DNA of 64,000 bases from Leptolyngbyaceae cyanobacterium (lineage in GTDB: Bacteria; Cyanobacteriota; Cyanobacteriia; Phormidesmidales; Phormidesmidaceae): the NCBI GenBank assembly GCA_965263355.1, contig CBDHHL010000056.1:640001-704000 (forward strand), in the 5' to 3' direction. The notes under the pieces are model-generated. The model worked only from the letters and a program-made list of their open reading frames with translations, had not been told where the DNA came from and did not search any database. This document shows positions 13,990-17,039 of the stretch, in pieces (positions within the stretch are counted from its first letter, which is position 1; each line of letters begins with the position of its first letter). The translations under genes were made by a program, and so were the position numbers.

Positions 13990-14453
13990 CTCAGATTTCT
14001 CCTAAAAATTCAAATAAAATGTTCTGACTTATTTAATTGAGATCTGAATGCGCAATATCAACCATGATTAGGAACCTTCAGGGATATCGTCACCTGGCGA
14101 TTAAACCTGAGGCGGTAGGATGCTGGTTGTTGATTTTCCCAATGAATAATAGCTATGTTTTGCTAATTAATAGCGAGATTAGGGATTGAATAGTTTTTCT
14201 ACCAAAAACTTAGAAGTCAGAACACCCTTTAAAGAGAGCACATCCTTCTGGAACTTCAAATAGCTACCAAACTATTGTCTTTAGGGAGTTCAGCAACTTA
14301 GCCTAATTTTTGTCTGTAGTTATAGACAGCTTAACCCTGATGATGATACCTTGACACATTTTAGATCTTACAGACCTTAGGTCTGCAAATGTTGTTCCAG
14401 TGGATGTGCATTAATAACTGATGGAGCCTAATTTGAGAGAGCTGTGAAACTTG

Positions 14454-15317
14454 TTAGGCAACTGGGTCAAGGGAATGTTGTGCCCTAACGTTGCGACCAA
14501 TAGCCTGAGCAATGGGCGCTAAACTGTCTATGAGTTTGGCCATGGCCTCTAAGCTAATGGTTTGTCTGGCATCACTTACGGACTTATCTGGTTCTGGATG
14601 GCATTCAATGATTAATCCATCAGCTCCAGCTGCGATCGCAGCCCGAGCTAAGGCTGCAACCAGTTCTCGCTTACCGGTTGCATGGCTAGGATCAACCAGC
14701 ACGGGCAAGTGGATAATTTGCTTAAGGGCGACTACAGCACCGAGGTCTAACACATTGCGAGTATGAGTATCAAAGCTACGAATACCGCGTTCACACAGAA
14801 TAATATTGGGATTACCGTGGCTGGCAATATATTCTGCTGCCATAACAAACTCAGTTACCGTTGCCGCTAACCCTCGCTTGAGCAAAATGGGTTTATCCAC
14901 CTCACCCAAGGCCTTAAGTAAGTCAAAATTTTGCATATTGCGGCTGCCCACTTGTAGTACATCAGCATGGGGCATTAGCTTTTCGATCTGATGGATGGCC
15001 ATGACTTCAGTAACTACGGGTAAACCATAGCGCTGACGGATGGCGGCAAGAATATCCAAGCCAACGTCACCCAGCCCCTGAAATGCGTAGGGGGACGTAC
15101 GCGGTTTATAAATCCCCCCGCGTACGCCCTGTATAGCTAGGTTGGCGTTAGCAATGGCTTCCATTTGAGCCATGCTCTCGATAGAACAGGGGCCACCCAC
15201 GATAAACAGGTCTTGGCCACCGACGGTGATGGCAGGGGTGTGCTGGGTGGCGGGTGCGATCTCAATTTCACTGATGTGGTCAGTGTGCTGTTTAGCAATC
15301 AGTTTGGCGTCCTTCAT
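14454..15317 (-). CDS. aroF: 3-deoxy-7-phosphoheptulonate (DAHP) synthase, type I-beta, without N-terminal regulatory domain (287 aa)
   Basis: GGPCSIES, RGGIYKPRTSPYAFQGLG, LQVGSRNMQNF, LLKRG, LCERGIR, VDPSHATG motifs. True start taken as ATG 15317 (MKDAKL); the longer ORF in the track merely reads through the repeat array. Confidence 0.93.
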   Translation of the reverse strand: MKDAKLIAKQHTDHISEIEIAPATQHTPAITVGGQDLFIVGGPCSIESMAQMEAIANANLAIQGVRGGIYKPRTSPYAFQGLGDVGLDILAAIRQRYGLPVVTEVMAIHQIEKLMPHADVLQVGSRNMQNFDLLKALGEVDKPILLKRGLAATVTEFVMAAEYIASHGNPNIILCERGIRSFDTHTRNVLDLGAVVALKQIIHLPVLVDPSHATGKRELVAALARAAIAAGADGLIIECHPEPDKSVSDARQTISLEAMAKLIDSLAPIAQAIGRNVRAQHSLDPVA

Positions 15318-15339
15318 GGGTTTAGAAAGTAAGTAAAAA

Positions 15340-15660
15340 AAACAAAAAGCCCACAGCTTTTTGGGTAAACAAAAAGCCCACAGCTTTTTGGGTAAACAAA
15401 AAGCCCACAGCTTTTTGGGTAAACAAAAAGCCCACAGCTTTTTGGGTAAACAAAAAGCCCACAGCTTTTTGGGTAAACAAAAAGCAGCTTTTTGGGTAAA
15501 CAAAAAGCCCGCAGCTTTTTGGGTAAACAAAAAGCCCACAGCTTTTTGGGTAAACAAAAAGCCCACAGCTTTTTGGGTAAACAAAAAGCCCACAGCTTTT
15601 TGGGTAAACAAAAAGCCCGCAGCTTTTTGGGTAAACAAAAAGCCCGCAGCTTTTTTGGGC
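15340..15660. repeat. Tandem array of 12 x 27-bp units AAACAAAAAGCCC(A/G)CAGCTTTTTGGGT; unit 6 has a 4-nt deletion
   Basis: Units start at 15340, 15367, 15394, 15421, 15448, 15475 (23 bp), 15498, 15525, 15552, 15579, 15606, 15633. No spacers. Confidence 0.97.
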
Positions 15661-15702
15661 TCCGGGCAAGTCAGTACAGCAAAGCAAACGCTACCTACCC
15701 GG
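15633..15702 (-). promoter_or_regulatory. Attenuator 2: antiterminator stem plus terminator-like hairpin
   Basis: On the minus strand CCGGGTAGGT (end of leader 2) pairs with ACTTGCCCGG (10 bp, 2 G-U). It overlaps the start of GGAGCCC-N11-GGGCTTT followed by TTGTTT. Confidence 0.65.
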
Positions 15703-15753
15703 TGGTGGCGTAAAAAAGAAAAAAGTAAATTGCCAGCTGTAGCAGACGATCAT
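15691..15753 (-). CDS. Aromatic-rich leader peptide 2, MIVCYSWQFTFFFFTPPPGR (20 aa); not in the ORF track
   Basis: ATG ATC GTC TGC TAC AGC TGG CAA TTT ACT TTT TTC TTT TTT ACG CCA CCA CCG GGT AGG TAG. 7 of 20 codons are aromatic, including an FFFF run; upstream of aroF. Confidence 0.8.
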   Translation of the reverse strand: MIVCYSWQFTFFFFTPPPGR

Positions 15754-15811
15754 GGCGGTCAATGAAAACGGTCAAAAGAGGTAATCAAAACGAAACCGGG
15801 TACTCACTGAT

Positions 15812-15844
15812 AAAACAAAACCGCAGAGCTTACACCCTGCGGTT
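15812..15844 (-). terminator. Attenuator 1 intrinsic terminator
   Basis: Minus strand AACCGCAGGG-TGTAAG-CTCTGCGGTT followed by a T-rich tract. Confidence 0.8.
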
Positions 15845-15888
15845 CACCGGCTTCCCATGCTAGCGCTCGGGTTCATCGCCGGTGAACC
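15841..15888 (-). promoter_or_regulatory. Attenuator 1 antiterminator stem
   Basis: Perfect 11-bp GGTTCACCGGC / GCCGGTGAACC. The 5' arm lies in the last codons of leader 1; the 3' arm shares AACC with the terminator 5' arm. Confidence 0.75.
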
Positions 15889-15923
15889 TGACTAAACCAA
15901 AAGTAAAAAAATGAGTGCTGCAT
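15873..15923 (-). CDS. Aromatic-rich leader peptide 1, MQHSFFYFWFSQVHRR (16 aa); not in the ORF track
   Basis: ATG CAG CAC TCA TTT TTT TAC TTT TGG TTT AGT CAG GTT CAC CGG CGA TGA. Six consecutive aromatic codons FFYFWF. Confidence 0.85.
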   Translation of the reverse strand: MQHSFFYFWFSQVHRR

Positions 15924-15965
15924 GGGATGAAAATTTTTGCTAGCAATAGCTATCTCTACGTTCGT

Positions 15966-15994
15966 ACCTTAACGTGTCAAATTTAAACCGTCAA
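15966..15994 (-). promoter_or_regulatory. Putative sigma70 promoter of the leader1-leader2-aroF transcript
   Basis: Minus strand TTGACG-17 nt-TAAGGT, about 40 nt before leader 1. Confidence 0.6.
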
Positions 15995-16022
15995 CCTGTA
16001 GAAGCGTTGCGTACAATGCCCA

Positions 16023-16068
16023 AGATTTTTTGTAGAGGCGTTGCATGCAACGCCTCTACAAAAAATCT
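16023..16068. repeat. Perfect 46-bp palindrome with GTAG-type REP-like core; probable ridA terminator
   Basis: AGATTTTTTGTAGAGGCGTTGCA|TGCAACGCCTCTACAAAAAATCT overlapping the ridA stop. A degenerate copy lies at ~15997-16020. Confidence 0.8.
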
Positions 16069-16456
16069 ATTTCACTGCGATACATTCAATTTCGACCAGT
16101 ACATCCTTAGGTAGGCGGGCTACCTCAACACAGGCCCGAGCGGGAGCTGTAGCGTCATCAAAGTAGGTTGCATAGATACCATTCATAGTGGCAAAGTCGT
16201 TCATATCCTTTAAGAAAACAGATGTTTTAACCACATTAGCCATGGTGGCTCCCGCTGCTGCCAATACGGCACTTAGATTCTCTAAGCACTGTTTGGTTTG
16301 AGCGGCGACATCACCGTCACCTACCAGGGCTCCACTACTGGGATCCAGGGCTACCTGTCCGGAAGCAAATACCATCTCCCCTGAGGCAATGACGGCCTGA
16401 TTGTAAGGCCCAACGGGGGCAGGAGCCTGATCAGTTTGGACAATGCGACGAACCAT
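16067..16456 (-). CDS. ridA: RidA/YjgF/UK114 family enamine/imine deaminase
   Basis: APAPVGPYNQA, SGQV, VVKTSVFL, PARACVEVARLP, VEIECIA. Confidence 0.93.
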   Translation of the reverse strand: MVRRIVQTDQAPAPVGPYNQAVIASGEMVFASGQVALDPSSGALVGDGDVAAQTKQCLENLSAVLAAAGATMANVVKTSVFLKDMNDFATMNGIYATYFDDATAPARACVEVARLPKDVLVEIECIAVK

Positions 16457-16547
16457 AATGGACCATAGATACCAGCCTGAGTATTTTACCGGAAGGTTAA
16501 CGACCTAAAATACCAAAGACTTAACATGCCTACCACTGTGCTGAACC

Positions 16548-17039
16548 ATGGCTGACTTTAATCGTGTGACTGAGCTTTATCAAGCATTTCCTCAAAAGTT
16601 TCGTAGTATCATGCTGAGCACAGCCAGCGCTGATGGCATACCCCAAGCAAGCTATGCCCCCTTTTTAATTGATGCAGACAAAAAAATATATATATACATA
16701 AGTGGTCTATCAGCCCATACGGCTAATCTCAAGCAAACGGGACGAGTCAGTGTTCTCTTTATCGAAGATGAAGCTGAAACCAAGGAGATTTTTGCTCGCC
16801 GTCGTCTTACCTATGAGTGCACCGCAGCAATCCTGCCCCGTGATACAACCCAGTGGCAAACCTTAATTGATCGATTTGAACAACGCTTTGGCCAAGTGAT
16901 CGGCTTAATGAAGGGTCTGCCAGACTTCCAGATTTTTCAACTGCAGCCCCAGGCAGGACAATTTGTGATGGGATTTGGAGCAGCCTATCGGGTGGGTTCT
17001 CAGGATTTAAATAGTCTGGAGCCGAGACGTCGAAATTAA
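16548..17039 (+). CDS. HugZ/HutZ-like pyridoxamine 5'-phosphate oxidase family protein
   Basis: PQASYAPF, YISGLSAHTANL, FIEDE, FARRRLT, FVMGFGAAY. Confidence 0.85.
   Translation: MADFNRVTELYQAFPQKFRSIMLSTASADGIPQASYAPFLIDADKKIYIYISGLSAHTANLKQTGRVSVLFIEDEAETKEIFARRRLTYECTAAILPRDTTQWQTLIDRFEQRFGQVIGLMKGLPDFQIFQLQPQAGQFVMGFGAAYRVGSQDLNSLEPRRRN

Follow-up and report, generated by a model that had tools for sequence, protein, structure and literature searches.

The aroF locus and its leader region

The subject of this analysis is the control region of aroF, a gene for DAHP synthase (DAHP being the 7-phosphate of 3-deoxy-D-arabino-heptulosonate) that lies on the minus strand of a 64,000-nucleotide (nt) stretch of DNA, hereafter the window, from a Leptolyngbyaceae cyanobacterium (GCA_965263355.1, contig CBDHHL010000056.1, positions 640,001-704,000). 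Between a sigma-70-type promoter and the aroF start codon lie, in order, a pair of small open reading frames (ORFs) rich in codons for phenylalanine, tyrosine and tryptophan (F, Y and W), each overlapping at its end an antiterminator that in turn overlaps an intrinsic terminator, and then a tandem array of 27-nt units (Table 1). This arrangement very probably represents two ribosome-mediated leader-peptide transcription attenuators in series, served by one promoter and acting on a type I-beta DAHP synthase that lacks an allosteric domain; the model is built on the anatomy of the sequence, its conservation, the covariation of its stems and its linkage to the short form of the enzyme, each of which is directly observed. 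A first-pass annotation, made from the letters of the window, had proposed such a pair of attenuators, and the promoter, both leaders, both stems and both terminators all lie at the minus-strand coordinates it gave. Its statement that aroF follows the second terminator was correct as to the gene, which begins downstream at 15317, and overlooked the array of 11.9 copies in between; where it closed the control region, at 15633, the first repeat copy ends.

Table 1. Features of the aroF leader region and its surroundings, in window coordinates
Feature	Position	Strand	Description
Sigma-70-type promoter	15966-15994	minus	TTGACG 15994-15989, 17-nt spacer, TAAGGT 15971-15966
Leader 1 ORF	15873-15923	minus	MQHSFFYFWFSQVHRR; 16 codons + TGA; 6/16 residues aromatic
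Antiterminator 1	15841-15888	minus	11-bp perfect stem, 15888-15878 with 15851-15841; encloses a small hairpin
Terminator 1	15811-15845	minus	stem 15845-15818, 12 pairs, then UUUUGUUUU
Leader 2 ORF	15691-15753	minus	MIVCYSWQFTFFFFTPPPGR; 20 codons + TAG; 7/20 residues aromatic
Antiterminator 2	15662-15702	minus	10-bp stem, 15702-15693 with 15671-15662; two of the pairs are G-U
Terminator 2	15633-15667	minus	stem 15667-15642, then UUUUUGUUU
Tandem array	15340-15655	minus	unit ACCCAAAAAGCTG(C/T)GGGCTTTTTGTTT; 27 nt, 11.9 copies, one unit being 23 nt long
aroF, type I-beta DAHP synthase	14454-15317	minus	287 residues, catalytic core only, ATG at 15317
RidA/L-PSP family gene	16067-16456	minus	PF01042; directly upstream of the aroF leader

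Two conserved aromatic leader peptides

How exceptional the two leaders are can be judged against the window itself. When every ATG-started frame of 10-30 codons on both strands (751 frames) was scored by the maximum number of F, Y or W in any 8 residues, two frames reached five or more; these were the two leaders, with a score of 6 each, and the runner-up score of 4 was shared by eight frames. The two leaders are far from chance.

The set of loci used for comparison came from a protein scan with AroF, one genome being kept per species, which returned 506 relatives; the best 80, i.e. the closest, were used, and their identity falls from 80-87% in Leptothoe and Leptolyngbya sp. PCC 7375 to 65-70% in Nostoc, Oculatella, Elainellales and a Gloeobacterales metagenome-assembled genome. 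The first-pass annotation had suggested looking for F/Y/W-rich ORFs upstream of orthologous aroF genes, and the search was rewarded: both leaders, with their order kept, are present at 79 of the 80 loci, and the 80th (L034) offers only 102 nt of upstream sequence. Per-sequence counts and stem alignments in what follows refer to the window plus the 79 loci with both leaders (n = 80).

The leader 1 consensus reads ..SYFYFWF..VH.. and that of leader 2 ..SWFYGFYFWPR..SG. An ATG start is found in 80/80 sequences for leader 1 and 79/80 for leader 2, the latter beginning with GTG or TTG at locus L051. All three aromatic residues occur together in 77 of the 80 frames of either leader, and also, as had been claimed, in both peptides of the window, with tryptophan alone being near-universal (79/80 in leader 1, 80/80 in leader 2); on average 6.1 of 17.7 residues are aromatic in leader 1 and 7.7 of 20.6 in leader 2. 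The distance from the last aromatic residue to the stop codon is likewise fixed, at 6 residues in 71 of 80 sequences for each leader. Tyrosine in leader 1 is encoded by both TAC (75 codons) and TAT (70 codons), and five sequences carry an extra in-frame TTT, that is, a whole phenylalanine codon. Taken together, the ATG starts, the retention of F, Y and W, the fixed geometry, the mixture of tyrosine codons and the whole-codon insertions point to selection on a translated frame; both leaders evolve like coding sequence, and their translation is predicted.

The end of leader 2 differs between lineages. Within the clade of the window (15694-15708, minus strand, and loci L001-L016) it reads TPPPGR in 15 of 17 sequences and ASPPGR in the other 2, and elsewhere PR..SG. 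The polyproline run lies on and just before the 5' arm of antiterminator 2, so that a proline- or EF-P-dependent pause at this point would favour termination.

Compensatory change in four overlapping stems

In both modules the antiterminator begins inside the leader. The 5' arm of antiterminator 1 is made of codons 12-16 of leader 1 and ends 3 nt before the TGA; that of antiterminator 2 takes in the last three codons of leader 2 together with the first base of the TAG. In module 1 antiterminator and terminator share the segment 15845-15841, in module 2 the segment 15667-15662. Antiterminator 1 folds at -31.0 kcal/mol (z -5.2) and is paired in 96.2% of alignment cells, with double changes at 7 of its 11 pairs and none of 500 shuffles as good. 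Corresponding values for terminator 1 are -19.1 kcal/mol, 95.5% of cells paired and double changes at 7 of 12 pairs, and for terminator 2 -16.0 kcal/mol, 93.5% and 4 of 9. Antiterminator 2 (-18.3 kcal/mol) is paired in 74.1% of cells over the 14 columns tested; its well-kept core consists of 8 bp (alignment columns 30-37 with 74-81) and covaries at column pairs 30/81 (UA 39, CG 27) and 31/80 (UA 50, CG 9), the inner 4 pairs being confined to the clade of the window.

Controls for these values consisted of 500 shuffles and of slid positions, and both the paired cells and the covariation score lie above 500/500 shuffles and above all slid controls for each of the four stems, an outcome that answers the covariation test suggested in the first-pass annotation. 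All four stems hold their pairing by means of compensatory changes. The shuffles take no account of kinship among the sequences, and the cores of the stems scarcely vary, so that what counts in this result is the variable pairs and the slid controls. RNAalifold, with no structure supplied, predicted antiterminator 1 with the top of terminator 1, as well as terminator 2, and the T-runs (U-runs in the transcript) behind terminators 1 and 2 are conserved in both module alignments. The sequence features by which such attenuators are recognised are found here, namely a codon-enriched short ORF, mutually exclusive hairpins, an intrinsic terminator and a stop codon so placed that a ribosome upon it would lie over the 5' arm, with the aromatic codons upstream of it. 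No Rfam leader family, such as Phe_leader or Trp_leader, fits the leaders: a cmscan of 14000-17000 with E up to 10 returned nothing within 15690-15960, and the matches in the leader region were chance-level ones on the repeat array.

Sixty-three of the 80 sequences, and 8 of 1600 shuffles, have the promoter pattern TTGAC[AG]-N16-18-TAnnnT no more than 130 nt 5' of leader 1. The same strict pattern occurs in 0/80 sequences between the modules and in 0/80 between leader 2 and aroF. The TTGACG-17-TAAGGT of the window was not listed by a simple promoter and terminator scan, its second hexamer being below the threshold of that scan. The attenuator reading of the first-pass annotation is thus supported by leaders kept at 79 of 80 loci, by fixed spacing, by four covarying stems with conserved U-runs behind the terminators, and by a strict promoter pattern that occurs 5' of leader 1 and in neither of the two downstream intervals.

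Linkage to a DAHP synthase without its allosteric domain

AroF of the window matches PF00793 (238 bits), NF006421 (367.3 bits, cut-off 335) and TIGR01361 (332.6 bits, cut-off 267.75), and aligns to positions 85-337 only of the 338-position NF006421 profile. PF18152, the ferredoxin-like domain, has no match in the protein; both long cyanobacterial forms tested (L118 and L120) carry it.

The distribution of the motif was followed with two covariance models, R1 for module 1 and R2 for module 2, and a phylum sample of 151 genomes drawn evenly. R1 matched 21 of these genomes, a lower bound as only 24 candidates per genome were scored, and did so once in each: 20 matches lie at a short aroF and one, in genome G053, at the remnant of such a gene. 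A protein search of the same 151 genomes was bimodal, with 21 genomes containing an ortholog 64-85% identical to AroF (E <=5.6e-114) and the next-best proteins being 45-54% identical and encoded by open frames of about 335-450 residues. Both leaders are present at 18 of the 21 short-form orthologs, and at none of nine long-form loci do the 700 nt upstream contain a frame with five or more aromatic residues in 8. Either module also occurs without the other, one genome (G092) having an ortholog with module 2 only and another (G041) one with module 1 only, which implies that each module can stand alone; a further genome (G005) lacks an ATG near leader 2, and the terminator of that leader appears degraded. 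In G053 (locus L124, C49:71000-75000, minus strand) an intact leader 1, MFSSRSYFYFWFRVVHWE, and its antiterminator are fused to an internal fragment of a short aroF; this is a decayed short-aroF locus, and the genome retains two long-form DAHP synthase genes. R2 gave one strong match in four of five genomes, along with one weak partial match (E 0.0094). With a single R1 match in each of the 21 genomes, no further regulon members came to light, bearing in mind that weak sites may escape a first look in which 24-150 candidates per genome were scored.

PF01474 was found in none of four genomes examined for other DAHP synthases (G001-G003 of the clade of the window, and G041). Each of these has a second PF00793 gene, and the only one scanned (L127, in G001) is of the AroFGH type I-alpha (TIGR00034, 508 bits). 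The attenuators are thus a mark of the domain-less paralog, and this usually coexists with an allosterically equipped DAHP synthase. A compensation of the missing allosteric domain by attenuation, put forward in the first-pass annotation, is supported by association, in that the motif is found only with the short enzyme lacking PF18152. Its view that the modules are no recent duplication holds: they are separately conserved across the phylum, and within the window R1 finds module 1 only and R2 module 2 only (E up to 1), a result with which an ancient duplication would still be compatible.

Proposed mechanism and competing explanations

Each module would comprise three segments: A, the last leader codons; B, which could pair either with A, giving the antiterminator, or with C; and C, which in combination with B and the U-run would form the intrinsic terminator. 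When phenylalanine, tyrosine and tryptophan tRNAs are charged, the ribosome would advance to the leader stop codon and cover A, B would pair with C, and RNA polymerase would terminate. Should any of the three tRNAs be scarce, the ribosome would stall within the aromatic run, at least 6 codons before the stop, and leave A free to capture B in the more stable antiterminator, whereupon transcription would proceed. A transcript of aroF would have to clear both modules, so that output should approximate the product of two read-through probabilities. It is from sequence that we infer that ribosomes stall, that transcripts end early, that starvation relieves this, and that the modules multiply in the multiplicative or AND-like way proposed in the first-pass annotation. 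As AroF has no ferredoxin-like allosteric domain, we propose that the supply of this isozyme would be set by the charging of aromatic tRNAs and not by feedback inhibition.

Several points weigh against two serial attenuators. Firstly, each antiterminator is more stable than its terminator, and no upstream segment that might block it (an anti-antiterminator) was seen, no systematic search for one having been made; an untranslated leader should accordingly read through, unlike that of E. coli trp. The first-pass annotation went too far in tying a free 5' arm to ribosome stalling alone, as the arm is equally free when the leader is untranslated. Secondly, neither leader is preceded by an obvious Shine-Dalgarno sequence on reading of the letters, and the model presupposes that transcription-translation coupling in cyanobacteria is sufficiently tight. 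Thirdly, the promoter test consisted of one strict pattern, with which a weak start before aroF is still compatible, and the last array unit with its U8 run (15363-15343) resembles an unregulated weak terminator. Finally, the 80 loci are the nearest of the 506 relatives, and the majority of stem-core pairs are invariant.

Three other explanations deserve to be set beside these attenuators. The leaders could be nascent-peptide sensors in the manner of TnaC, whose conserved tails arrest the ribosome on a free amino acid, with tRNA charging being irrelevant. This explanation would be in keeping with the conserved C-terminal residues, VH.. in leader 1 and either PR..SG or PPPGR in leader 2, as it would with the near-universal tryptophan and the PPPG at the end of leader 2 in the clade of the window, consecutive prolines being known ribosome stall sites according to the accessible part of PMC5299641. 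The tails nevertheless coincide with the antiterminator 5' arms and covary with the partner arms, and they are invariant at the nucleotide level even at third codon positions (GGTTCAC; CCGGG), which argues for a constraint on RNA rather than on peptide; moreover, runs of 4-12 aromatic codons are typical of sensors of tRNA charging. We consider peptide-specific arrest very unlikely.

Little more than a slender chance can be given to the idea that the modules produce two short terminated transcripts, acting as stand-alone small RNAs or small-peptide messengers, with aroF under a promoter of its own. A strong terminator does close each module, and an orphan leader 1 persists beside the decayed aroF of G053; against this, R1 gave a single match in each of its 21 genomes, every one at a short aroF or its remnant, the strict promoter pattern is absent before aroF in all 80 sequences, and conserved antiterminators that overlap terminators would be pointless in a plain small-RNA gene. 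Control that is mainly translational or exerted through mRNA stability, with translation of the leaders remodelling the 5' untranslated region and premature termination being of little account, could draw on the 320-nt structured array before the start codon (-149.7 kcal/mol for 401 nt, z -5.1), which could affect translation or decay, and is highly improbable in view of the conserved U-runs behind conserved hairpins and of the 16 closest relatives, whose hairpins end 74-87 nt before the aroF start, clear of the ribosome-binding region.

Relation to known attenuators and significance

Leader-peptide attenuation is a textbook mechanism, the attenuators of E. coli being described by a four-segment model, and in mgtCBR of Salmonella, a virulence and Mg2+ operon, two leader ORFs answer different signals. 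The serial attenuators of aroF would differ from trpL, pheL and pheM of E. coli in having three segments, in sensing three amino acids together, in being arranged as tandem modules and in belonging to no Rfam leader family; they differ from mgtCBR in that the three amino acids are the same in either ORF and are the end products of the regulated pathway. What is shared with the E. coli systems, as the accessible part of PMC11802643 presents them, is a short ORF with cognate codons, mutually exclusive hairpins and a U-run, and what is shared with mgtCBR, termed 'tandem attenuators' in the part of PMC3641672 available, is a leader RNA with two short ORFs, the translation of which is expected to govern transcription into the coding region.

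Two further systems stand upstream of a DAHP synthase gene. In aroR-aroF of Corynebacterium glutamicum a single leader with Phe-Tyr-Phe causes stalling that raises transcription under phenylalanine limitation (Neshat et al. 2014, as relayed in the accessible part of PMC11802643), and the likeness lies in a leader peptide with an aromatic run before the gene; that system belongs to an actinobacterium and has one leader, with tryptophan unreported and tyrosine without effect, whereas two different F/Y/W leaders in series are found here, the comparison being one of published description in the part of the source available. The candidate uORFC-13-1 of Acholeplasma (PMC8632094, in the part available) similarly combines an upstream ORF with phenylalanine codons and an intrinsic terminator before aroF, and differs, again as far as its description goes, in being a single element from the Tenericutes and a bioinformatic candidate.

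Full-text literature searches, with subscription journals outside their coverage, turned up no description of an attenuated DAHP synthase gene, or of this kind of control, in cyanobacteria, in agreement with the first-pass annotation, which knew of no such description in cyanobacteria. The accessible part of PMC4833913 states that reliable data on attenuation in cyanobacteria are absent, and cyanobacterial attenuation goes unmentioned in the parts of PMC1173090 and PMC7997468 that were available. New in the present case are a known mechanism in a new phylum, the tandem arrangement, the triple amino-acid specificity and the link to a domain-less isozyme. The locus would offer a deeply conserved example of an attenuator at the entry to the shikimate pathway, and it implies that ribosome and RNA polymerase cooperate closely enough in cyanobacteria for such sensing. 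The existence of both kinds of single-module variant makes it a natural test case for what is gained from two serial sensors. It further suggests that two DAHP synthases, one regulated allosterically and the other, domain-less, by attenuation, divide the labour between them, which would be relevant to the engineering of cyanobacteria for aromatic compounds.

A tandem array between terminator 2 and aroF

The 27-nt array is the sole large array in the window, and its unit is derived from terminator 2, comprising the loop, the 3' arm and the U-run; the array is also delimited as 15340-15659. It extends the distance from the leader 2 stop codon to the aroF ATG to 373 nt, where the 16 closest relatives have 74-87 nt. 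The array is real, and it varies in copy number. Runs X1 and X2 contain short contigs of the repeat unit at a depth about 5-7 times that of the flanks, although these runs are possibly the source of the assembly and so not independent. Run X4, from a seagrass metagenome with sequences 95-99% alike, contains both an array-free form and one that has 2.6 units or more; in one of its contigs 15336 is joined to 15637 with 12 other letters in between, which skips 300 nt and corresponds to the single-copy form of the relatives. A scan of metagenome contigs for the unit junction gave 0 matches. The most likely origin of the array is expansion by slippage.

The first copy keeps the complete terminator 2 and the partner of the antiterminator, which leaves the logic of the switch intact. 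Repeat units acting as strong terminators are unlikely, as the hairpin of a single unit is weak (-8.4 kcal/mol, z -1.0), the last unit before the U8 run being perhaps an exception. The unit is open in all three forward frames, giving rise to spurious long ORFs at 14454-15638 and 15322-15687. An N-terminal extension of AroF encoded by the array was rejected, since composition accounts for the open frames of the unit and the alignments of all relatives begin at residue 1.

Lengthening of this spacer is not peculiar to the window. It exceeds 180 nt in 13 sequences (the window and 12 loci), among which tandem repeats are found at least in the window, at L025 and at the heptamer-bearing L037, L058, L064, L073 and L080, by TRF except for the last two, which were read by eye. 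At L025 the spacer holds a 47-nt unit in 2.6 copies, Nostoc-type loci have heptamer arrays (such as GCCCAAT/CCCCAAT and G-rich heptamers), and the repeat-bearing spacers of other lineages are stretched to 219-432 nt. Insertion of tandem repeats thus recurs between terminator 2 and the aroF start codon across lineages.

A bolder extension, which we put forward as speculative and on balance doubtful, would see the tandem pair as an ultrasensitive multiplicative switch that holds a feedback-insensitive 'emergency' DAHP synthase nearly silent until aromatic tRNA charging falls, the first classical attenuation in cyanobacteria, with the array of this strain serving in addition as a heritable, slippage-driven dial on aroF output akin to phase variation.

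Upstream neighbourhood

The gene directly upstream of the aroF leader, of the RidA/L-PSP family, also lies 5' of the leader at L004-L006, L008, L009, L013 and L015, which makes this a conserved neighbourhood. After the RidA-family gene, at 16019-16072, there is a near-perfect 20-bp palindromic hairpin with A- and T-runs on its flanks, to which Rfam offers a chance-level microRNA match only. This hairpin looks like a two-way terminator that insulates the promoter of the aroF leader and, having its own terminator, the RidA-family gene is probably not co-transcribed with the aroF leader.

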